Source: Alphaproteobacteria bacterium
Lineage (GTDB): Bacteria; Pseudomonadota; Alphaproteobacteria; SP197
Length of the DNA stretch: 64,000 bases
Direction: 5' to 3'
NCBI GenBank assembly: GCA_964291265.2
Contig: OZ219747.1
Location: 3,040,001 to 3,104,000, forward strand
In this document: piece by piece, positions 44,039 to 55,554 of the stretch
How the letters are laid out: every line of letters starts with the position of its first letter
Numbering within the stretch: position 1 is the stretch's first letter
Translations under genes and position numbers: made by a program
The notes under the pieces: generated by a model
Seen by the model: only the letters and a program-made list of their open reading frames with translations
What the model was told of the DNA's origin: nothing
Database searches by the model: none

Positions 44039-45223
44039 TCAGGACAACCCGCGGAATTCCTCGCGGTCGTCCACTCTGCCGATCATGCGGCTGATGACAC
44101 GAGAGAGCGAGTCGGGAGTGAACTCGCACGCGTCTCCCCTGAGCATCACCAGGTTCTCGGGCTCGAAGCAAAGCGAGGTGATCGCCCTGACATCCCTCTC
44201 GCCGAGGCCCTCGAGCGCCAGATCGAATCCGCTATCGGCGAGGAAACGCCGATAGAGAGACGGCGCCTGCAGCGCCGCTGCTCCCTCCGGCCCGCCAAGA
44301 GCCGCGGCGACGGCCGAATAGGCGTCAGCTGCGGCTTCGGCCGAGTGTTCCATGGTGGCGGCAAGGGCAAGGCCGACGGCGCGTCCGTGGTGAAGTCCGG
44401 CATGGTGTCCCAGGGCGTGGCCGATGGCATGGGCGACGGCGACTCCGGTCACGTCGAAGGCGATACCGGCCAGTGCGGCGGCAATCTGGACGTGACCGCG
44501 CGCTTCGCTGCAGGCCGGATTGCGCACGGCCTCCGGGAGCCACGCGCGCAGTGTCCTGATGGCGCCGAGCGCCATGGCCGAGGACACCGGATTGCGCCGT
44601 CGACAGGTTGCCGATTCGATCGCATGGACCATGGCGTCGATTCCCGTTGCGGCAGTCAGTGGCGCCGGCAGGGTCACGGTGAGGAGCGGGTCGAGCAGGG
44701 CGAGGTCGAATCGCAGGCTCTCTCCCCAGGCCCACAGCTTGCGCTCTCCCGTGCTGAAAACCGAGGTGCGCGTCACCTCGGATCCGGTACCTGCCGTGGT
44801 GGGCACGGCGATCTTGGGAAGTCCCCCGGCAGGCACGGGCGTTCCGCCAAGGGCAAAGGTCACCGCATCCCGGCCGTCAGGTGCAAGGCAGGAGGCCAGC
44901 TTGGCGGCATCGAGCGTCGAACCGCCTCCCATGGCAACGATGCAGGCGGCCCGGCGCGACCGGGCCTGTTCCGAGATGGCATCGACGGTCTCGGCTGCGG
45001 GGTCGCTGGCGATGTCGCTGAAGACACTGCAGCCATGCCCGACCTCATCGAGAGCACAGGCGGCGCGTTCGGCAAGGCCGTTGCCGGTGTGAACAGGGTC
45101 GACCACGAGGAGGACTTCGGCGCCATCGCCGGCAAGGCGTCCGACATCGCGGCCGAGCCTTGTCAGGCGATTGTCGCCGAAGGCCAGCGGTACCGGTGCC
45201 GTGAAGCTGAATGATGGAGGCAT
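44039..45223 (-). CDS. Iron-containing alcohol dehydrogenase
   Basis: GGGSTLDAAK, PTTAGTGSE, DAMVHAIE, AHAIGH, HHG. Confidence 0.93.
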   Translation of the reverse strand: MPPSFSFTAPVPLAFGDNRLTRLGRDVGRLAGDGAEVLLVVDPVHTGNGLAERAACALDEVGHGCSVFSDIASDPAAETVDAISEQARSRRAACIVAMGGGSTLDAAKLASCLAPDGRDAVTFALGGTPVPAGGLPKIAVPTTAGTGSEVTRTSVFSTGERKLWAWGESLRFDLALLDPLLTVTLPAPLTAATGIDAMVHAIESATCRRRNPVSSAMALGAIRTLRAWLPEAVRNPACSEARGHVQIAAALAGIAFDVTGVAVAHAIGHALGHHAGLHHGRAVGLALAATMEHSAEAAADAYSAVAAALGGPEGAAALQAPSLYRRFLADSGFDLALEGLGERDVRAITSLCFEPENLVMLRGDACEFTPDSLSRVISRMIGRVDDREEFRGLS

Positions 45224-45300
45224 GGGAAGTCACAGGATGTCCGATGTCGGTTGCCTTATGATGGATGGAATCCCCTGCGTCAAACAGCCTTTCACACGTC

Positions 45301-45373
45301 ATTGTGCAGTGCACAATTATCTCTTGACGACGCCCACCAACGTGCCTATATCGGTCATGTTGCAGTGCAACAT
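45301..45373 (+). promoter_or_regulatory. Sigma70 promoter of the phasin gene flanked by two palindromic operators (likely PhaR sites)
   Basis: CTTGAC(45323)-N17-CTATAT(45346). Perfect palindromes ATTGTGCAgTGCACAAT (45301-45317) and ATGTTGCAgTGCAACAT (45357-45373), each with a TGC-N3-GCA core. Confidence 0.8.
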
Positions 45374-45405
45374 CAACGGCCAAGGAGCCAGAGAGGAGAT
45401 CAGAC

Positions 45406-45942
45406 ATGGCGAATGCCAGGACAACCGGCGAGACATCGCAGGTCGCGGGTGTGGATGAGGTGATCGAGACCGGGTTCAGGGTCTCGGAGGACGTCGTGAA
45501 GGGCAACACCGATGCCACCAGGAAGGGTTTCGAGACCATGGTCACCATGGGTCGTGATGCGTTCGACAGCGCCGCCCGGACAGGTGGCGACGACACCGTT
45601 CTCGGACAGATCAACGACATGCGGCGCGCCAACTTCGAAGCGATGGTGGAAGCCGGCGCCACGTTCATCAAGGGTGTCGAGGGATTCAACGGCCGCGTCC
45701 TCGAGATCGCCAGGAGGCGGGTTGCCGAAGGCGCCGAGACCCGCAAGGCGCTCGCCGGTGCGAAGTCGTTCGGCGAAGCGGTCGAGATCCAGCAAGGTTA
45801 CGTGCGCAAGACCCTTGACCATGCCATTCAGGACAGCATGGACATGACGACTGCCTGGCTGCGCATCGCTGCCGAGAGCGGCCAGCCGCTCGGCCAGCGG
45901 TTCACCGATGCCTGGAGCCGGGCTGTTCGCCAGACTGCCTGA
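45406..45942 (+). CDS. phaP: Phasin family protein
   Basis: RANFEAMVEAG...KALAGAKSFGEAVEIQQGYVR; GGAG RBS; position upstream of clpS-clpA. Confidence 0.85.
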   Translation: MANARTTGETSQVAGVDEVIETGFRVSEDVVKGNTDATRKGFETMVTMGRDAFDSAARTGGDDTVLGQINDMRRANFEAMVEAGATFIKGVEGFNGRVLEIARRRVAEGAETRKALAGAKSFGEAVEIQQGYVRKTLDHAIQDSMDMTTAWLRIAAESGQPLGQRFTDAWSRAVRQTA

Positions 45943-46489
45943 TTGAGCGTTCCTTTCGAACAGCGCCCCCGCAGGGTCATGAAGACCCGGCGGGAGTGTT
46001 GGCGTTCGGAAACAGGCCGGGCGGGCGGCGAGGCCTTCGAGGACGCCCGATTCCCGTGCAGGGCACGGGCTGCGATGTTCGCACTCCCCTCAGTCCATTC
46101 GAATCCACGAACGCATCGGTGGTCCTGCCGGCAGCCATCGGAATGGCGGCTGGGAGAAGAGCGCGCGTCTCCGGTAGTCTGCGAGGATTCCAGAAATCTG
46201 CCGCTCCGGTCAGCACGCACCGGATGAGTAAGCGTTCGGCCGTGCGGTGACGGCCGATTTTGGTTGGTTTTGGGATTTGCTGACAACCGTCTGAGAAAGT
46301 GCTGGCAAGCATCCTCAACCGGTGAATATCACCAACAATCATCGCGCGACCGACCGCTTACCCCGAAGCCCTATTGGCAGGAAAGGACGCCCGGGAGACC
46401 TCAAGCACGATGACCTGCAAGCGTGCGGTCTTGCCCCGGTTTTCGCTCGGCATTCTCTCAGGCGCCGTCATCCCCTCATGAGCGAACGC

Positions 46490-46876
46490 TTACCGCTGCC
46501 TGGGCCTGGCGGCCAGCACATCATCAAGACTTGGGGCGGCCAGCACCGCCTCCGCCCAGGCTTCCAGTTCGGCGGACGAGGCGTTGCGGACCCGCTCGCG
46601 GACCGCATCCGGCACATCACCGAAGCGCAAGGACAGTTGACGAAGAAGAAGTTCCGCGAGGGCCTCGCTCCGGCCTCGTTCGAGTCCCCTCTGGAGTCCC
46701 CTCTCGATACCCTCGGCTCGTCCTCTCTCGATACCCTCGGCTCTTCCCCTCTCGATACCCTCGGCTCTTCCTCTCTCGATACCCTCGGCTCTTCCCCTCT
46801 CGAGTCCCTCGGCTCTTCCCCTCTCGAGTCCCTCGGATCTTCCCTGTTCGACCCAGGTTTGTGCGATCGTGCCCAT
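46490..46876 (-). CDS. Putative internal in-frame small protein (RpnS-like antitoxin) of copy 1, 128 aa
   Basis: GGAGG-TGTTG-ATG GGC ACG inside the rpn ORF. Equivalent ORFs at 48107-48517, 49749-50051 and 51285-51575. Confidence 0.65.
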   Translation of the reverse strand: MGTIAQTWVEQGRSEGLERGRAEGLERGRAEGIERGRAEGIERGRAEGIERGRAEGIERGLQRGLERGRSEALAELLLRQLSLRFGDVPDAVRERVRNASSAELEAWAEAVLAAPSLDDVLAARPRQR

Positions 46877-47671
46877 CAACACCTCCCAATGGTCCGGCTT
46901 CGTCCGGCGCAAAGACGCCTCCAGCATGGCCGGCGTCAGGCCCTTGTGCTCGGTCATGTAGCGCACAATATGGTGCTCGAAGTCGCTCCCTGCAAGCAGC
47001 CCGTCCATGATCACGTCGAGAAGATCGGGCGGTACCTCCTCGGCAAAGGCAAACCTGAGCGCCAGAAGAGCGGACCGCACCTCGGGCGAGGTCGACGGCC
47101 GGTCCGGCGCCATCTCCCCGAGGTCGTGCACCACATAGGCGAACTCCCTGACGAACGACTTCAGCTTCTCGGGCGCGTCGATCATCTTCAGCACCGAGCG
47201 CGCCGCCTTCCAGCGCCCCCGGCCGTGATAGAAGACCAGGGGGATGATCGCCGGCAGCTTGATGTCGTTCCCGCCGCCCTCGCTCTTGCTCCGCTCGCTC
47301 TTGCTCCGCTCGATCTCGCGCCGCCAGATGTTGACCATGTATCCCAGAAGCTGGAGCGGCGTCTCGGCGTCGACGTAGCTCTTGTGTTCGAGCAGCACGT
47401 AAAGGCGCGCATCTTTGCCGTCCTTCAATCTCACCCGGAACAGCGCATCGCACTGGGTGGTACGGGCGGCCTTGTCGACGAAACTCTCCCCAACCGCCTC
47501 GAACGGCGCCTCGGGATCGAGGAGTTCAGCCACCTTCCGCGGCAGGTAGTCGGTGAGCAGAGAAGCGGCACGGGACGGTTCGGAGACCAGTGCCCGGAAC
47601 AGCGTATCGTGTCGATTCACCGGAAGTCTCACCGAGCGAGACCCCGGCGTTTCAACGGGCATCGTGCTCAC
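46490..47671 (-). CDS. Rpn/YhgA-family PD-(D/E)XK nuclease, copy 1 (DUF4351-like C-terminus)
   Basis: HDTLF, SFVD, CDALF, YVLLEHKS, LPAIIPLVFYHG, LMGTIAQTW, (GRAEGIER)n, LLRQLSLRFG...LEAWAE. Exact start uncertain. Confidence 0.92.
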   Translation of the reverse strand: MSTMPVETPGSRSVRLPVNRHDTLFRALVSEPSRAASLLTDYLPRKVAELLDPEAPFEAVGESFVDKAARTTQCDALFRVRLKDGKDARLYVLLEHKSYVDAETPLQLLGYMVNIWRREIERSKSERSKSEGGGNDIKLPAIIPLVFYHGRGRWKAARSVLKMIDAPEKLKSFVREFAYVVHDLGEMAPDRPSTSPEVRSALLALRFAFAEEVPPDLLDVIMDGLLAGSDFEHHIVRYMTEHKGLTPAMLEASLRRTKPDHWEVLMGTIAQTWVEQGRSEGLERGRAEGLERGRAEGIERGRAEGIERGRAEGIERGRAEGIERGLQRGLERGRSEALAELLLRQLSLRFGDVPDAVRERVRNASSAELEAWAEAVLAAPSLDDVLAARPRQR

Positions 47672-48106
47672 GGGTTGGAAGGGGGAAGGTGTTCGTCATG
47701 GCGGCACCCTACGCCGAACAGCACCAAGGCGGCAATCGCGGCGCCTGACCCGGGGTGAGGCCTGCCAGGCGTCAAGACCTCGATGGCGCTTGTTCCTCAG
47801 GTCGCCGCCATGCCCGTACTTCACTCGGGTGGCCTCAGCCCAAGCTATGGCCCCTCCCTATGCTGGGTTGTGGAACTGATAGAAGACCAGTGATCACCCG
47901 CGATTTTGGCAACAAACTTCAAGGTCACCAACCCGCCCTCGTCCCCGCCTTCGATACCTCAAGACCGCTTCGCTGCCTGCCGAAGCCATAGTGGCAGGAA
48001 AGGACGCCCGGGAGACCTCATGCACGATGACCTGCAAGCGTCCGGTCTTGCCCCGGTTTTCGCTCGGCATTCTCCCAAGCGCTGTCATCCCCTCATGAGC
48101 GAACGC

Positions 48107-49313
48107 TTACCGCTGCCTGGGCCTGGCGGCCAGCACATCATCAAGACTTGGGGCAGCCAGCACCGCCTCCGCCCAGGCCTCCAGTTCGGCGGCCGACGCG
48201 CCGCGCACCCGCTCGCGGACCGCATCCGGCACATCACCGAAGCGCAGGGACAGTTGACGAAGAAGAAGTTCCGCGAGGGCCTCGCTCCGGCCTCGTTCGA
48301 GTCCCCTCTGGAGTCCCCTCTCGAGTCCCTCGGCTCTTCCTCTCTCGATCCCTTCGGCTCTTCCTCTCTCGATACCCTCGGCTCTTCCTCTCTCGATACC
48401 CTCGGCTCTTCCTCTCTCGATACCCTCGGCTCTTCCTCTCTCGATACCCTCGGCTCTTCCCCTCTCGATACCCTCGGCTCTTCCCTGTTCGACCCAGGTT
48501 TGTGCGATCGTGCCCATCAACACCTCCCAATGGTCCGGCTTCGTCCGGCGCAGTGACGCCTCCAGCATGGCCGGCGTCAGGCCCTTGTGCTCGGTCATGT
48601 AGCGCACAATATGGTGCTCGAAGTCGCTCCCTGCAAGCAGCCCGTCCATGATCACGTCGAGAAGATCGGGCGGTACCTCCTCGGCAAAGGCAAACCTGAG
48701 CGCCAGAAGAGCGGACCGCACCTCGGGCGAGGTCGACGGCCGGTCCGGCGCCATCTCCCCGAGGTCGTGCACCACATAGGCGAACTCCCTGACGAACGAC
48801 TTCAGCTTCTCGGGCGCGTCGATCATCTTCAGCACCGAGCGCGCCGCCTTCCAGCGACCCCGGCCGTGATAGAAGACCAGGGGGATGATCGCCGGCAGCT
48901 TGATGTCGTTCCCGCCGCCCTCGCTCTTGCTCCGCTCGCTCTTGCTCCGCTCGATCTCGCGCCGCCAGATGTTGACCATGTATCCCAGAAGCTGGAGCGG
49001 CGTCTCGGCGTCGACGTAGCTCTTGTGTTCGAGCAGCACGTAGAGGCTTAGCATCTTGGCCGTCCTTCAATCTCACCCGGAACAGCGCATCGCACTGGGT
49101 GGTACGGGCGGCCTTGTCGACGAAACTCTCCCCAACCGCCTCGAACGGCGCCTCGGGATCGAGGAGTTCAGCCACCTTCCGCGGCAGGTAGTCGGTGAGC
49201 AGAGAAGCGGCACGGGACGGTTCGGAGACCAGTGCCCGGAACAGCGTATCGTGTCGATTCACCGGAAGTCTCACCGAGCGAGACCCCGGCGTTTCAACGG
49301 GCATCGTGCTCAC
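48107..49313 (-). pseudogene. Rpn-family nuclease copy 2, frameshifted; C-terminal small ORF intact
   Basis: At ~49048 'GGCTTAGCATCTTGG' replaces 'GGCGCGCATCTTTG' (+1 nt), splitting the gene just before YVLLEHKS. Confidence 0.88.
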
Positions 49314-49748
49314 GGGTTGGAAGGGGGAAGGTGTTCGTCATGGCGGCACCCTACGCCGAACAGCACCAAGGCGGCAATCGCGGCGCCTGACCCGGGGTGA
49401 GGCCTGCCAGGCGTCAAGACCTCGATGGCGCTTGTTCCTCAGGTCGCCGCCATGCCCGTACTTCACTCGGGTGGCCTCAGCCCAAGCTATGGCCCCTCCC
49501 TATGCTGGGTTGTGGAACTGATAGAAGACCAGTGATCACCCGCGATTTTGGCAACAAACTTCAAGGTCACCAACCCGCCCTCGTCCCCGCCTTCGATACC
49601 TCAAGACCGCTTCGCTGCCTGCCGAAGCCATAGTGGCAGGAAAGGACGCCCGGGAGACCTCATGCACGATGACCTGCAAGCGTCCGATCTTGCCCCGGTT
49701 TTCGCTCGGCACTCTCTCAGGCGCCGTCATCCCCTCATGAGCGAACGC

Positions 49749-50846
49749 TTACCGTTGCCTGGGCCTGGCGGCCAGTACATCATCAAGACTTGGGGCGGCC
49801 AGCACCGCCTCCGCCCAGGCTTCCAGTTCGGCGGCCGACGCGCCGCGCACCCGCTCGCGGACCGCATCCGGCACATCACCGAAGCGCAGGGACAGTTGAC
49901 GAAGAAGAAGTTCCGCGAGGGCCTCGCTCCGGCCTCGTTCGAGTCCCCTCTCGATACCCTCGGCTCTTCCTCTCTCGATACCCTCGGCTCTTCCCCTCTC
50001 GATACCCTCGGCTCTTCCCTGTTCGACCCAGGTTTGTGCGATCGTGCCCATCAACACCTCCCAATGGTCCGGCTTCGTCCGGCGCAAAGACGCCTCCAGC
50101 ATGGCCGGCGTCAGGCCCTTGTGCTCGGTCATATAGCGCACAATATGATGCTCGAAGTCGCTCCCTGCAAGCAGCCCGTCCATGATCACGTCGAGAAGAT
50201 CGGGCGGTACCTCCTCGGCAAAGGCAAACCTGAGCGCCAGAAGAGCGGACCGCACCTCGGGCGAGGTCGACGGCCGGTCCGGCGCCATCACCCCGAGGTC
50301 GTGCACCACATAGGCGAACTCCCTGACGAACGACTTCAGCTTCTCGGGCGCGTCGATCATCTTCAGCACCGAGCGCGCCGCCTTCCAGCGACCCCGGCCG
50401 TGATAGAAGACCAGGGGGATGATCGCCGGCAGCTTGATGTCGTTCCCGCCGCCCTCGCTCTTGCTCCGCTCGCTCTTGCTCCGCTCGATCTCGCGCCGCC
50501 AGATGTTGACCATGTATCCCAGAAGCTGGAGCGGCGTCTCGGCGTCGACCTGGCTCTTATGTTCGAGCAGCACGTAGAGGCGCGCATCTTTGCCGTCCTT
50601 CAATCTCACCCGGAACAGCGCATCGCACTGGGTGGTACGGGCGGCCTTGTCGACGAAACTCTCCCCAACCGCCTCGAACGGCGCCTCGGGATCGAGGAGT
50701 TCAGCCACCTTCCGCGGCAGGTAGTCGGTGAGCAGAGAAGCGGCACGGGACGGTTCGGAGACCAGTGCCCGGAACAGCGTATCGTGTCGATTCACCGGAA
50801 GTCTCACCGAGCGAGACCCCGGCGTTACAACGGGCATCGTGCTCAC
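49749..50846 (-). CDS. Rpn-family nuclease copy 3
   Basis: Near-identical to copy 1; 3 octapeptide repeats; EHKSQ variant. Confidence 0.92.
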   Translation of the reverse strand: MSTMPVVTPGSRSVRLPVNRHDTLFRALVSEPSRAASLLTDYLPRKVAELLDPEAPFEAVGESFVDKAARTTQCDALFRVRLKDGKDARLYVLLEHKSQVDAETPLQLLGYMVNIWRREIERSKSERSKSEGGGNDIKLPAIIPLVFYHGRGRWKAARSVLKMIDAPEKLKSFVREFAYVVHDLGVMAPDRPSTSPEVRSALLALRFAFAEEVPPDLLDVIMDGLLAGSDFEHHIVRYMTEHKGLTPAMLEASLRRTKPDHWEVLMGTIAQTWVEQGRAEGIERGRAEGIERGRAEGIERGLERGRSEALAELLLRQLSLRFGDVPDAVRERVRGASAAELEAWAEAVLAAPSLDDVLAARPRQR

Positions 50847-51284
50847 GGGCTGGAAGAGGGAAGGTGTTCGTCATGGCGGCACCCTACGCCGAACAGCACC
50901 AGGGCGGCAATCGCGGCGCCTGACCCGGGGTGAGGCCTGCCAGGCGTCAAGACCTCGATGGCGCTTGTTCCTCAGGTCGCCGCCATGCCCCCGTACTTCA
51001 CTCGGGTGGCCTCAGCCCAAGCTATGGCCCCTCCCTATGCTGGGTTGTGGAACTGATAGAAGACCAGTGATCACCCGCGATTTTGGCAACAAACTTCAAG
51101 GTCACCAACCCGCCCTCGTCCCCGCCTTCGATACCTCCAAGACCGCTTCGCTGCCTGCCGAAGCCGTATTGGCAGGAAAGGACACCCGGGAGACATCATG
51201 CACGATGACCTGCAAGCGTCCGGTCTTGCCCCGGTTTTCGCTCGGCATTCTCCCAAGCGCTGTCATCCCCTCATGAGCGAACGC

Positions 51285-52355
51285 TTACCGCTGCCTGGGC
51301 CTGGCGGCCAGCACATCATCAAGACTTGGGGCAGCCAGCACCGCCTCCGCCCAGGCCTCCAGTTCGGCGGCCGACGCGCCGCGCACCCGCTCGCGGACCG
51401 CATCCGGCACATCACCGAAGCGCAGGGACAGTTGACGAAGAAGAAGTTCCGCGAGGGCCTCGCTCCGGCCTCGTTCGAGTCCCCTCTGGAGTCCCCTCTC
51501 GAGTCCCTCGGCTCTTCCCCTCTCGATACCCTCGGCTCTTCCCTGTTCGACCCAGGTTTGTGCGATCGTGCCCATCAACACCTCCCAATGGTCCGGCTTC
51601 GTCCGGCGCAAAGACGCCTCCAGCATGGCCGGCGTCAGGCCCTTGTGCTCGGTCATGTAGCGCACAATATGGTGCTCGAAGTCGCTCCCTGCAAGCAGCC
51701 CGTCCATGATCACGTCGAGAAGATCGGGCGGTACCTCCTCGGCAAAGGCAAACCTGAGCGCCAGAAGAGCGGACCGCACCTCGGGCGAGGTCGACGGCCG
51801 GTCCGGCGCCATCTCCCCGAGGTCGTGCACCACATAGGCGAACTCCCTGACGAACGACTTCAGCTTCTCGGGCGCGTCGATCATCTTCAGCACCGAGCGC
51901 GCCGCCTTCCAGCGACCCCGGCCGTGATAGAAGACCAGGGGGATGATCGCCGGCAGCTTGATGTCGTTCCCGCCGCCCTCGCTCTTGCTCCGCTCGATCT
52001 CGCGCCGCCAGATGTTGACCATGTATCCCAGGAGCTGGAGCGGCGTCTCGGCGTCGACGTAGCTCTTATGTTCGAGCAGCACGTAGAGGCGCGCATCTTT
52101 GCCGTCCTTCAATCTCACCCGGAACAGCGCATCGCACTGGGTGGTACGGGCGGCCTTGTCGACGAAACTGCCCTCGACCGCCTCCGGCTGCGCCTTGGGG
52201 TCGAGGAGGTCAGCCACCTTCCGCGGCAGGTAGTCGGTGAGCAGAGAAGCGGCACGGGACGGTTCGGAGACCAGTGCCCGGAACAGCGCATCGTGCCGAT
52301 TCACCGGAAGTCTCACCGAGCGAGACCCCGGCGTTTCAACGGGCATCGCGCTCAC
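51285..52355 (-). CDS. Rpn-family nuclease copy 4
   Basis: Near-identical; 2 octapeptide repeats; distinct DPKAQPEAVEGS patch; one fewer SKSER unit. Confidence 0.92.
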   Translation of the reverse strand: MSAMPVETPGSRSVRLPVNRHDALFRALVSEPSRAASLLTDYLPRKVADLLDPKAQPEAVEGSFVDKAARTTQCDALFRVRLKDGKDARLYVLLEHKSYVDAETPLQLLGYMVNIWRREIERSKSEGGGNDIKLPAIIPLVFYHGRGRWKAARSVLKMIDAPEKLKSFVREFAYVVHDLGEMAPDRPSTSPEVRSALLALRFAFAEEVPPDLLDVIMDGLLAGSDFEHHIVRYMTEHKGLTPAMLEASLRRTKPDHWEVLMGTIAQTWVEQGRAEGIERGRAEGLERGLQRGLERGRSEALAELLLRQLSLRFGDVPDAVRERVRGASAAELEAWAEAVLAAPSLDDVLAARPRQR

Positions 52356-52889
52356 GGGTTGGAAGAGGGAAGGTGTTCGTCATGGCGGCACCCTACGCCG
52401 AACAGCACCAAGGCGACAATCGCGGCGCCTGACCCGGAGTGAGGCCTGCCGGGCGTCAAGACCTCGATGGCGCTTGTTCCTCAGGTCGCCGCCATGCCCC
52501 CGTACTTCACTCGGGTGGCCTCAGCCCAAGCTATGGCCCCTCCCTATGCTGTGTTGTGGAACTGATAGGAGACCAGTGATCACCCGCGATTTTGGCAACA
52601 AACTTCAAGGTCACCAACCCGCCCCCGCCTTCGATACCTCAAGACCGCTTCGCTGCCTGCCGAAGCCGTATTGGCAGGAAAGGACGCCCGGGAGACCTCA
52701 TGCACGATGACCTGCAAGCGTCCGGTCTTGCCCCGGCATTCGCTCGGCACTCTCCCAGGCGCCGTCATCCCCTCATGAGCGAACGCTTACCCGGATGACG
52801 GCGGTGAACAGCGACCGGCGTCTGGCCTGTTGTCTGCATTGCGGGTATGATCGATTCTCCAGACTTCGTCATGCGTCCGATGGTGCCAC

Positions 52890-53216
52890 ATGAGTGACGA
52901 CAATCGCCGGAACAGTGATGGCAGCGGGACCGGTGTCGCGACCCGGGTTCGGCAGAAGACGCGGAAGCCCTCCATGTACAAGGTGCTTCTGCTCAACGAC
53001 GACTACACGCCGATGGAGTTTGTCGTTCACGTGCTGGTCAGGTTCTTCCACAAGGGCCCCGAGGAAGCGGCTCGAGTCATGCTTCACGTGCACCGTCATG
53101 GTGTCGGCCTGTGCGGCGTCTATCCCTTCGATGTCGCCGAGAGCAAGGTGACGCAGGTCATCGACTTTGCGCGGCTCCACGAACACCCCCTGCAGGCCAC
53201 GCTCGAAAAGGAATGA
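52890..53216 (+). CDS. clpS: ATP-dependent Clp protease adaptor
   Basis: [31 protein letters not shown]. Confidence 0.98.
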
Positions 53217-53223
53217 GCCCTTC

Positions 53224-55554
53224 ATGATCTCCTCCAAACTCGAACACACACTGCGCAAGGCCCTGGAACACGCCAGCATGCGATGCCACGAGTACGCCAC
53301 GCTCGAGCATCTGATGCTGGCGCTGACCGAGGACGAGGATGCGGTGGCGGTGCTCAGGGCCTGCAATGTCGATCCCGAGCGTATCCGCACCGAGGTCGAG
53401 CACTTCATCGATCACAGTCTTGATTCCATCACCCTCGAGGAGGCCGTCGAGGCGAAGCCCACCCAGGGCTTCCAGAGGACCCTGCGCAGGGCGGTGGCCC
53501 ACGTCCAGTCATCGGGGGCGGGCGAGGTGACCGGGGCAAACATTCTCGTGGCGATGTTCTCGGAACGGGAGAGTCATGTCGTCTGGTTCCTGCAAGAGCA
53601 GGACATGACGCGGCTCGATGCCGTGAGTTACATCAGCCATGGCGTTTCGAAGGTTCCGGGACAGTCGGAACCCAGGGTGGTGCGTGGAACCCAGGAAGAC
53701 GAGGAGGATGTTCGCCAGGGAGACGCGGCGCTCGAAGCCTACTGCGTCAACCTCAACGAGAAGGCGAAATCCGGCAGGACCGACCCCCTGGTCGGGCGGC
53801 AACGGGAGGTGGAACGCACCATCCAGGTGCTGTGTCGGCGCACCAAGAACAACCCCCTCCTTGTTGGCGATCCGGGGGTGGGCAAGACGGCGATCGCCGA
53901 AGGCCTCGCCCGGAGAATCACCGAGAACGATGTGCCCGAGGTGCTCGCCGGGTGCACGATCTGGGCCGTGGACATGGGGGCGCTGCTTGCCGGAACACGC
54001 TACCGGGGCGATTTCGAGGAGAGGCTGAAGTCGGTCATGTCCACGCTTGAAGCCGATCGCGACGCCATCGTCTTCATCGACGAGATTCACACGGTCATCG
54101 GTGCGGGTGCCGCGTCCGGTGGATCGCTGGACGCGTCCAACATGCTCAAGCCCGCCCTGCAGAGCGGCACGCTGCGGTGCATGGGATCGACCACCTACAA
54201 GGAATTCCGTTCCGTGTTCGAGAAGGATCGTGCCCTGTCGCGCCGCTTCCAGAAGATCGATGTGGCGGAACCCTCCATCGGCGATGCGGTGAAGATCCTG
54301 CGTGGACTCAAGCCCTGCTACGAAGAGTTCCACGGCATCCGCTACACCCACGATGCCATCAGGACGGCGGTGGAACTCTCCGACCGCTACCTCCATGATC
54401 GCAGGTTGCCCGACAAGGCGATCGACGTGATGGACGAGGCCGGCGCGGCACAGATGCTGGTGCCGAGGAGCCGGCGTCGCAAGAGCATCGGTGTGGCCGA
54501 TGTGGAAGCGGTCATCGCGCGCATGGCGCGCATTCCGCCAAGGAAGGTGTCGCGCCGTGACCGGGCGTCCCTGATCGAGCTTCCGGTGCAGCTCAAGGGC
54601 GTTGTATTCGGACAGGACCAGGCGATCGACGCGCTGACCGATGCCATCAAGCTCTCCAGGGCGGGCTTGCGGGAAACGGAGAAGCCTGTCGGCAGCTACC
54701 TCTTCAGCGGACCGACTGGCGTCGGCAAGACCGAGGTGGCGCGGCGTCTTGCCGAGTTCTCGGGCATGGAGCTCGTTCGTTTCGACATGTCCGAGTACAT
54801 GGAACGGCACACCGTATCGCGGCTGATCGGCGCTCCGCCGGGCTATGTCGGATTCGACCAGGGCGGACTGCTCACCGATGCCGTGGACCAGAATCCCCAT
54901 GTCGTCCTTCTGCTCGACGAAATCGAGAAGGCCCACCCTGACCTCTTCAATGTCCTTCTCCAGGTGATGGATTACGGCAAGCTCACCGATCACAACGGCA
55001 AGAAGGTCGATTTCAGGAACGTCATCATCATCATGACGACAAACGTGGGAGCCAGTGAACTCGCGAGATCGCCGATGGGATTCGGCAGGGCGACGCGCCG
55101 GGGTGAGGACACGGAAGCCATCGAGAAGCTGTTCACGCCGGAGTTCCGGAACCGCCTTGACGCGATTGTCCCCTTCGCCTCGCTGACGCGCGAGACTGTC
55201 GGCCATGTCGTCGACAAGTTCATCGGCGAACTCGGCACGCAGCTTGCCGAACGCAAGGTCTCGATCTCGCTGTCGCCGGAGGCGAGGGAGTGGCTTTGCC
55301 GCCACGGCCATGACGAGACCTACGGCGCCAGGCCCCTGGCGCGCGTGATCCAGGAACATGTCAAGAAGCCGCTGGCCGACGAACTCCTGTTCGGCGGTCT
55401 TGTCGGCGGCGGGCATGTCACCGTGACCGTGACCGACGACGACTCCCTTGGTTTCGAATTGCAGGTGCGGGAATTCCTCACGGAGTTCGGCGGGGGTGAT
55501 GACGCACCGGCAAAGGCAACGGGAAGCCGCGGTTCAGGCCTGCCGGAAGGGTGA
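53224..55554 (+). CDS. clpA: ATP-dependent Clp protease ATPase subunit
   Basis: HEYATLEHL; two Walker A motifs GDPGVGKT and GPTGVGKT; RFDMSEY; downstream of clpS. Confidence 0.98.
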   Translation: MISSKLEHTLRKALEHASMRCHEYATLEHLMLALTEDEDAVAVLRACNVDPERIRTEVEHFIDHSLDSITLEEAVEAKPTQGFQRTLRRAVAHVQSSGAGEVTGANILVAMFSERESHVVWFLQEQDMTRLDAVSYISHGVSKVPGQSEPRVVRGTQEDEEDVRQGDAALEAYCVNLNEKAKSGRTDPLVGRQREVERTIQVLCRRTKNNPLLVGDPGVGKTAIAEGLARRITENDVPEVLAGCTIWAVDMGALLAGTRYRGDFEERLKSVMSTLEADRDAIVFIDEIHTVIGAGAASGGSLDASNMLKPALQSGTLRCMGSTTYKEFRSVFEKDRALSRRFQKIDVAEPSIGDAVKILRGLKPCYEEFHGIRYTHDAIRTAVELSDRYLHDRRLPDKAIDVMDEAGAAQMLVPRSRRRKSIGVADVEAVIARMARIPPRKVSRRDRASLIELPVQLKGVVFGQDQAIDALTDAIKLSRAGLRETEKPVGSYLFSGPTGVGKTEVARRLAEFSGMELVRFDMSEYMERHTVSRLIGAPPGYVGFDQGGLLTDAVDQNPHVVLLLDEIEKAHPDLFNVLLQVMDYGKLTDHNGKKVDFRNVIIIMTTNVGASELARSPMGFGRATRRGEDTEAIEKLFTPEFRNRLDAIVPFASLTRETVGHVVDKFIGELGTQLAERKVSISLSPEAREWLCRHGHDETYGARPLARVIQEHVKKPLADELLFGGLVGGGHVTVTVTDDDSLGFELQVREFLTEFGGGDDAPAKATGSRGSGLPEG

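Follow-up and report, generated by a model that had tools for sequence, protein, structure and literature searches.

A transposase-less composite element with IS66-type miniature ends as a probable vehicle of rpn genes in an alphaproteobacterial genome

Introduction

How rpn genes spread to tens of copies is an open question, and these genes have long been annotated as transposases. The question takes a concrete form at a locus between a phasin gene and clpS in a window of 64,000 nucleotides (the whole stretch of DNA analysed; contig OZ219747.1, positions 3,040,001 to 3,104,000) from an alphaproteobacterial genome of 4.83 Mb, here called G000, which consists of two contigs (C1 and C2). Four rpn genes in tandem are found there in a segment of 6.56 kb (46228-52790) with one left and five inward-facing ends of the IS66 type (IS, insertion sequence) and an 8-bp target duplication. 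We consider it likely that this segment is a composite transposon without its own transposase, bounded by MITEs (miniature inverted-repeat transposable elements) of IS66 origin and carrying the rpn genes as passengers. It was likely moved in trans by IS66, and its array likely arose through recombination with dispersed sister copies. That the rpn genes are passengers, and that transposition has occurred in the past, is well supported.

Statements on published work refer to the accessible parts of the cited papers. In that part of PMC10400941, rpn genes are described as having neither terminal repeats nor target duplications, and no evidence for autonomous transposition is reported. The corresponding part of bioRxiv 2021.08.16.456562 mentions only 9-bp inverted repeats near Cas12a-linked rpn genes.

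The ends of the element and their parent IS

An 11-mer end motif occurs six times in the window, once on the plus strand at 46228 and five times on the minus strand with tips at 46493, 48110, 49752, 51288 and 52790; 0.01 copies are expected, and none of 100 shuffled sequences contained six. An additional end motif is present at 46351-46361, and identical sequences of 8 bases adjoin 46228 and 52790. A preliminary description of this DNA had pointed to these motifs and to the stop codons within the tips; these and the duplication were confirmed and go far beyond chance. It had also counted one left end and five right ends. These ends are real, but the five repeated ones are tips of a separate MITE of 77 bp, and the right end of the left-hand element, a 134-bp MITE, is the additional motif. 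The segment 46228-46493, taken in that description for a single 266-bp MITE, was rejected as such. Its parts are the 134-bp MITE (46228-46361), a single base, 54 bp of spacer and, at 46417-46493, a 77-bp MITE; it has no target duplication of its own and is never found alone. None of the four end pairs in the genome that are 240-300 bp apart has a target duplication, and in relatives the segment showed only weak matches to IS ends, in 2 of 40.

The four units have lengths of 1617, 1642, 1536 and 1502 bp. The repeat between them measures 131 bp and is composed of the 77-bp MITE and the 54-bp spacer piece, while the IS66-derived 134-bp MITE occupies the spacer of a truncated fifth unit. Reading frames between the element ends are exclusively rpn; TnpC is not encoded inside, and the element thus lacks the transposase of its own that characterizes a tIS66.

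Every spacer also contains a decayed copy of a third MITE family of ~130 bp (47790-47916 and equivalents), the end of which is located at the joint to the rpn leader; at least 8 relatives occur elsewhere in the genome. RNA folding of the 77-nt MITE was no better than that of shuffled sequences (z -0.39), and an Rfam scan of 45000-54000 gave no match.

The ends match one IS of this genome, for which 39 left and 39 right ends were found, with 20 left/right pairs showing exact 8-bp duplications. Its single long frame codes for an IS66 transposase (PF03050, E 1.6e-51; NF033517 above cut-off), and with 12 intact open frames in the genome this transposase is available in trans. The terminal inverted repeats of the element and of the IS66 begin with the same GTAAGCG, which agrees with the IS66 end printed in PMC12888890, and the target repeats of IS66 are listed as 8 bp in a table of PMC3281130. 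The first 81 bp of the 134-bp MITE are 86-91% identical to IS66 left ends and its last ~53 bp are 91-94% identical to right ends. The 77-bp MITE is a deletion form of an IS66-family MITE of ~123 bp that also occurs free: there are 26 inward-facing end pairs 110-135 bp apart in the genome, 7 of them with an 8-bp repeat. Four pairs of a left end and a MITE tip surround rpn genes and show exact 8-bp duplications. As IS66 copies and free MITEs without rpn are bounded by the same ends and 8-bp duplications, the ends are not specific for rpn.

Most of the 2883-bp IS66 copies (L031:434-658; G000:C2:1876928-1879810 and sisters) contain, upstream of the transposase, the 5′ portion of a group II intron (RF02005), together with which they have spread at 99.4-99.5% identity. 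In other copies, a 1.26-kb insert is found at IS position 1715/1716. Exact 8-bp duplications also accompany IS66 end pairs around regions of 8-21 kb, among others at G000:C2 934847-955759, 2684627-2692842, 3290744-3298766 and 760043-767862.

Sister elements and empty sites

Three sister elements with one gene each have the same build and their own exact 8-bp duplications (C1:38865-40833, C2:64403-66252 and C2:1597656-1601907). Including older forms described below, seven rpn-bearing elements have perfect or near-perfect 8-bp duplications. The idea that rpn is cargo between IS ends was supported, and a survey of other rpn loci in the genome, which had been proposed as a check, did reveal the same junction together with left ends and target duplications. 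In the sister at C2:1597656, the 134-bp MITE is interrupted by a 2.4-kb copy of a second multi-copy IS (L087; G000:C2:1597760-1600204). One frame of this nested IS resembles, by eye, a DNA adenine methylase, and the same junction occurs as a loose end in a public read set (X2, see below).

Comparison with congeners revealed empty sites. At the window locus, the flanks are joined through one copy of the 8 bases in congener G001; clpS is not preceded by an element in other close congeners either, but there the intergenic sequence has changed too much for the site to be read. Of five congeners searched, three (G004, G001 and G005) lack the C2:64403 element and have a single target copy at its site.

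Three public read sets (X1, X2 and X3) were compared as contigs, and a fourth (X4) covers too little to be of use; all four runs come from one study, and X1 is possibly the source sample. Contigs of X1 match both junctions of the window element, with 0-1 differences, and those of the C2:64403 element. X2 and X3, which are ~98-99% alike in the flanks, also have junctions of the window element, so that the element is not unique to this assembly. One X3 contig crosses the C2:64403 site without the element, where 63 other, unread letters are followed by the last four target bases (L090:2403-4258). The spacer contig in X1 has a depth of 5.7x that of the flank, with 5.5 predicted from the assembly; seven units agree with this value, although it does not count copies, and depths of 3.9x in X2 and 2.3-3x in X3 hint at fewer units without giving a copy number. 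A metagenome scan returned one partial locus.

The stop codon inside the tip

All four rpn frames of the array end with CG|G TAA, where TAA represents bases 2-4 of the tip. Among the 16 rpn 3′ ends in the genome, 4 have the native CAC TGA, 5 run into a full-length MITE with a decayed tip that provides TAG, and 7 are of the window type. In all 12 non-native ends the tip is found two bases past the last native codon, which indicates one old event that replaced the stop codon and added one residue. Five independent stop captures were therefore rejected. The tip is absent at the stop in homologue 3′ ends outside this genome (0/29, 0/27 and 0/8, overlapping sets) and the element is not unique to this assembly, so that the grounds on which the preliminary description was to be refuted did not materialize. 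The junction DNA matched in none of 22 congeners.

A stop codon in the tip is a cheap coincidence, as the tip yields TAA at once in one of three frames. Out of 124 tips, 20 are preceded by a long open frame, and 10 of these 20 frames are not rpn. If the C-terminal antitoxin must stay whole, as may be concluded from PMC10400941, survival of this joint is to be expected. No target copy is left at the far side of the MITE, and insertion and tip-mediated deletion look alike in this situation. The preliminary description had proposed that the gene was captured by fusion to an IS end. This did not hold: an older MITE-bounded form with native TGA exists, and the joint is not required for gene capture. 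A functional need for the fusion was likewise rejected in view of native stops in forms from a distant genome, G041.

The rpn cargo

The rpn proteins contain the PF04754 domain (E 4e-41 and 1e-42, above the gathering score) and a DUF4351 tail. The PD-(D/E)XK motifs HDxLF, CDALF and LLEHKS (D22, D75, E95 and K97 of rpn 1) occur in genes 1, 3 and 4, called by motif and spacing without alignment to RpnA. Gene 2 loses EHK through a frameshift, and the nuclease is also frameshifted in two of the three single-gene sisters. An internal GGAGG followed by ATG is found in 7 of 7 units and would start products of 96-156 aa with DUF4351; those predicted from the array have 128, 136, 100 and 96 aa. Small proteins of this kind are antitoxins according to PMC10400941, with a specificity that follows the repeat number. 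Each gene is thus likely to code for a predicted nuclease toxin with an internal antitoxin, possibly with an anti-phage role. A comparison with solved structures gave no real match. In congeners, stand-alone small rpnS-like genes beside rpn (L027, L023, L026 and L009) begin at the same internal ribosome-site motif.

Older generations and a parallel in a distant genome

The rpn copies that run into a full-length MITE are also bounded by ends. C2:3000318-3002132 has an exact duplication, and its host IS is uninterrupted in G004, which represents an empty site. The duplication is exact at C2:3017695-3020825 if one extra base in the end is allowed, and has two mismatches at C2:1938854-1944117; for C2:1901801 no upstream partner end was found within 4 kb. 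Three of the five copies have a short extra IS66 left end outside a decayed MITE tip.

The oldest form is found in G041 (L106:4453-6647), where an rpn gene with native stop has IS4 debris on either side and, beyond the debris, a MITE at each end. The MITE lies in one 8-bp site of an IS4 element, the halves of which are permuted around rpn. Pieces of this form persist in G000, and the window type shows this permutation too (MITE, spacer, rpn, MITE, part of the spacer). The shared order suggests that, more than once, a single MITE next to the gene became a flanking pair through tandem duplication.

The coding DNA of rpn is 83-90% alike between G000 and the L106 copy of G041, while clpS-clpA is 71% alike (92% to congener G001). 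In the tree, G000 rpn proteins group with the L106 copy with 98/99 support. One clade of G000 and its near congeners was not rejected (p 0.057), and one clade of the G041 rows was (p 3e-6); these groups were named after seeing the tree, and frameshifted and short copies were left out. The sequences suggest that rpn was likely transferred horizontally between the two lineages, in one direction or the other.

G041 also has an independent array of three genes on its contig C2 (L127:1263-6195), with units that are 96-98% alike, native stops and different repeat numbers in the small proteins. An IS66-type tip is present at both unit junctions, and the ends are nested. No target duplication was found around this array or around the single rpn of G041. 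As a two-gene rpn array without an IS66 end occurs in the same genome, arrays do not need IS66 ends. The evidence for a vehicle of rpn genes covers G000 and G041. Congener G009 (L021-L022; G009:C2:713000-750000) has at least 9 rpn genes or fragments within 37 kb; both orientations occur among them, their stops are native and IS66 ends are absent.

How the array was built

Array units differ from each other in 20-39 of 1398 columns and from the dispersed singles in 15-41, the minimum being between unit 2 and one of the singles; every unit carries private differences. A total of 146 of 231 informative site pairs are incompatible, and neighbouring sites are more compatible than shuffled ones (p 0.0017). 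The frameshift of unit 2 also occurs in two single elements. Two types of single elements are distinguished by 13 sites; at 9 of these, units 3 and 2 have opposite states, and they switch between their 5′ and 3′ parts, as is expected from circle uptake or unequal crossover; this pattern was recognized post hoc in seven sequences. Recombination between units, which the preliminary description had anticipated, is thus seen in mosaic site patterns, and the recombination route to the array is moderately supported.

The same passenger element might instead have been arrayed by the IS66 transposase, through attack of a MITE tip on a site upstream of rpn on the sister chromosome or through a one-ended circle, either of which would give head-to-tail units in the manner of IS26 translocatable units. 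The three-gene array of G041 fits this, as both of its unit junctions lie exactly where an IS66-type tip is joined to the rpn leader. In the window, however, tip and rpn meet at an old joint that all 12 copies share, and what is new in the repeat unit is a joint within the spacer, beside the third MITE family and not at an IS66 tip. Internal junctions are devoid of an 8-bp duplication and the units are mosaics of dispersed copies, so that we regard construction by the transposase as unlikely.

Alternatively, the one-gene elements may derive from an array that existed before them, as sub-elements or collapse products for which internal tips served as alternative right ends, as had been envisaged for sub-elements with 0-4 genes. 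All internal tips are indeed intact, and the C1 single looks like unit 2 in its 5′ part and like unit 1 in its 3′ part, including the frameshift. While three one-gene elements do exist, they have in common a derived outer-end base (position 17) and a tail haplotype, both absent from all five array copies, which counts against an origin by excision from the array as it now stands; products with 0, 2 or 3 genes, moreover, are missing from the genome. We consider this order of events quite improbable.

It is very improbable that Rpn itself is the transposase of a new autonomous element with ends of its own. One gene between inverted ends with a target duplication does look IS-like, in old annotation it was called 'ISNCY', and the NCBIfam ISNCY transposase model matches weakly, far below cut-off; but the same ends and 8-bp duplications bound 20 DDE IS66 elements and, in free MITEs, DNA without rpn, the nuclease is frameshifted in two of three singles, and PMC10400941, as cited above, gives no evidence for autonomous transposition. 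An assembly artefact made of dispersed copies is hardly credible, for although no read-set record spans the array, each unit has its private differences, both junctions match X1 contigs and the spacer depth fits seven assembled copies.

A proposed course of events

For the composite transposon with rpn passengers, moved by IS66 and expanded by recombination, we propose the following course. An ancestral rpn gene ended with CAC TGA and was already located between two copies of the ~123-bp IS66-family MITE, an arrangement that is preserved in sequence. On one occasion the native stop was taken over by a MITE tip, as the junction documents, presumably by insertion or by tip-mediated adjacent deletion; the TAA of the tip would then have ended the frame one codon later and left the C-terminal antitoxin whole. 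Tandem duplication, suggested by the permuted order, would have placed the MITE on both sides of the gene, and an IS66 inserted into the next spacer may have shrunk to the 134-bp MITE and provided a fresh left end. The unit from this fresh left end to the outermost MITE tip appears to have inserted at four places, where the products are found, all of them flanked by an 8-bp duplication. The four-gene array may then have been built by unequal crossover, or by the uptake of circles of one unit, with the 131-bp repeats and the units of 1.5 kb as recombining stretches and the observed mosaicism as a result. By homology, the products of each gene are probably a toxic nuclease of the PD-(D/E)XK type and an internal antitoxin, and the four predicted antitoxins differ in the number of a four-residue repeat.

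Some results weigh against this account. Mobilisation by an IS66 transposase, of whichever subfamily would serve the MITE tip, is likely rather than observed; neither transposition nor a circle nor a change of length was seen directly, and none of the read-set contigs spans the array. Mosaicism could possibly stem from gene conversion without a change of copy number, and the absence of elements with 0, 2 or 3 genes from this genome counts here as well. Empty sites were not demonstrable for the sisters at C1:38865 and C2:1597656 and for the C2:3017695 element, the flanks of which are unjoined in five congeners, and the 63 letters at the X3 site may represent either another small insertion or a deletion scar. 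As to the cargo, NCBIfam Rpn models match below their curated cut-offs, and PADLOC gave no match for the three proteins searched.

More tentatively, rpn and IS66-type MITEs could form a self-renewing cycle, in which tandem duplication makes new composites, fresh ends replace decayed ones, single-gene circles shuttle from locus to locus and assemble arrays, antitoxin repeat length and with it specificity are particular to each unit and make the accordion addictive, and the vehicle has crossed between distant symbiont-like lineages. This is conceivable, although we would not expect all of it to hold; if true, it would explain in general terms how genes that are not transposases, such as rpn, can multiply.

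Table 1. Features of the rpn element and its flanks. Positions refer to the window.
Feature	Position	Strand	Remarks
Phasin gene	45406..45942	+	flanking, outside element
Target duplication, left copy	46220..46227	+	8 bp; single copy at empty site in congener G001
134-bp MITE	46228..46361	+	internal-deletion MITE of the genome's IS66; provides outer left end
54-bp spacer piece	46363..46416	.	recurs beside every 77-bp MITE copy
77-bp MITE	46417..46493	-	deletion form of free ~123-bp IS66-family MITE; intact tip 46493 supplies stop of rpn 1; decayed far end 46417
rpn 1 (PF04754 + PF14261)	46490..47671	-	open; 393 codons from first GTG; true start perhaps 47620
Predicted internal antitoxin RpnS of rpn 1	46490..46876	-	128 aa; GGAGG site ahead; putative function after PMC10400941
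Upstream spacer	47672..47979	.	rpn leader and decayed third MITE family, arms 47790-47805 and 47900-47916
131-bp direct repeat	47980..48110	-	54-bp spacer and 77-bp MITE 48034-48110
rpn 2	48107..49313	-	+1 frameshift near 49050, ahead of EHK motif; common to two dispersed copies
Predicted RpnS of rpn 2	48107..48517	-	136 aa; frame stays open
131-bp direct repeat	49622..49752	-	MITE 49676-49752
rpn 3	49749..50846	-	open; predicted RpnS 49749-50051 (100 aa)
131-bp direct repeat	51158..51288	-	MITE 51212-51288
rpn 4	51285..52355	-	open; recombination with older paralogues in its 5′ part; predicted RpnS 51285-51575 (96 aa)
131-bp direct repeat	52660..52790	-	MITE 52714-52790; its tip is the outer right end
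Target duplication, right copy	52791..52798	+	8 bp
clpS	52890..53216	+	flanking, outside element

Comparison with known systems

One-ended carriage of DNA, and head-to-tail units separated by one IS end, are familiar from translocatable units of IS26 and from alternative right ends of ISEcp1. In the window, by contrast, true MITEs in a decayed state act as the alternative ends, and nothing at the internal junctions points to joints freshly made by a transposase. The element also resembles the mobile insertion cassettes and transposable modules of PMC3281130 in the non-autonomous or one-ended carriage of neighbouring genes.

In build the element is like TIME-COMP, or integron mobilization units (PMC13367494), in which two MITEs bound passenger DNA, no own transposase is present and the target duplication lies outside the outermost ends; directly repeated MITEs are proposed there to swap cargo via circles and homologous recombination. 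Those units are Tn3-derived, have duplications of 5-6 bp and carry resistance genes, and the accessible part of that paper states that no non-TIME case is known in Enterobacteriaceae. The window element differs in having IS66-family and not Tn3 ends, an 8-bp duplication, two different end MITEs and an internal tandem array. With tIS66 (ISPa75; PMC12888890) it shares GTAAGCG-type ends and a passenger gene between the ends of related but different IS66 elements, while tIS66 keep a transposase and the window element has none.

The cargo agrees with Rpn/YhgA-like genes (PMC10400941, PMC5350276) in the PF04754 nuclease domain, the DUF4351 tail and the occurrence of tandem arrays and, by prediction, in an internal ribosome site for a small product with variable four-residue repeats. 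In PMC10400941, as far as accessible, such genes are without terminal repeats and target duplications; the rpn element has both and contradicts that statement. Searches of the open-access literature brought up no report of IS66-MITE-bounded rpn genes, a coverage that excludes most subscription papers and ISfinder. Defined ends, duplications, empty sites and a difference in presence within the group show a concrete vehicle for rpn genes and explain their misleading IS-like appearance; one genome preserves several generations of the vehicle that followed upon each other, a second genome has a parallel case, and the array offers natural variants for the study of repeat-length specificity between toxin and antitoxin. 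MITE composites, IS66 passengers and rpn arrays were each known as kinds of components, and their combination is a new form of MITE-bounded composite transposon.

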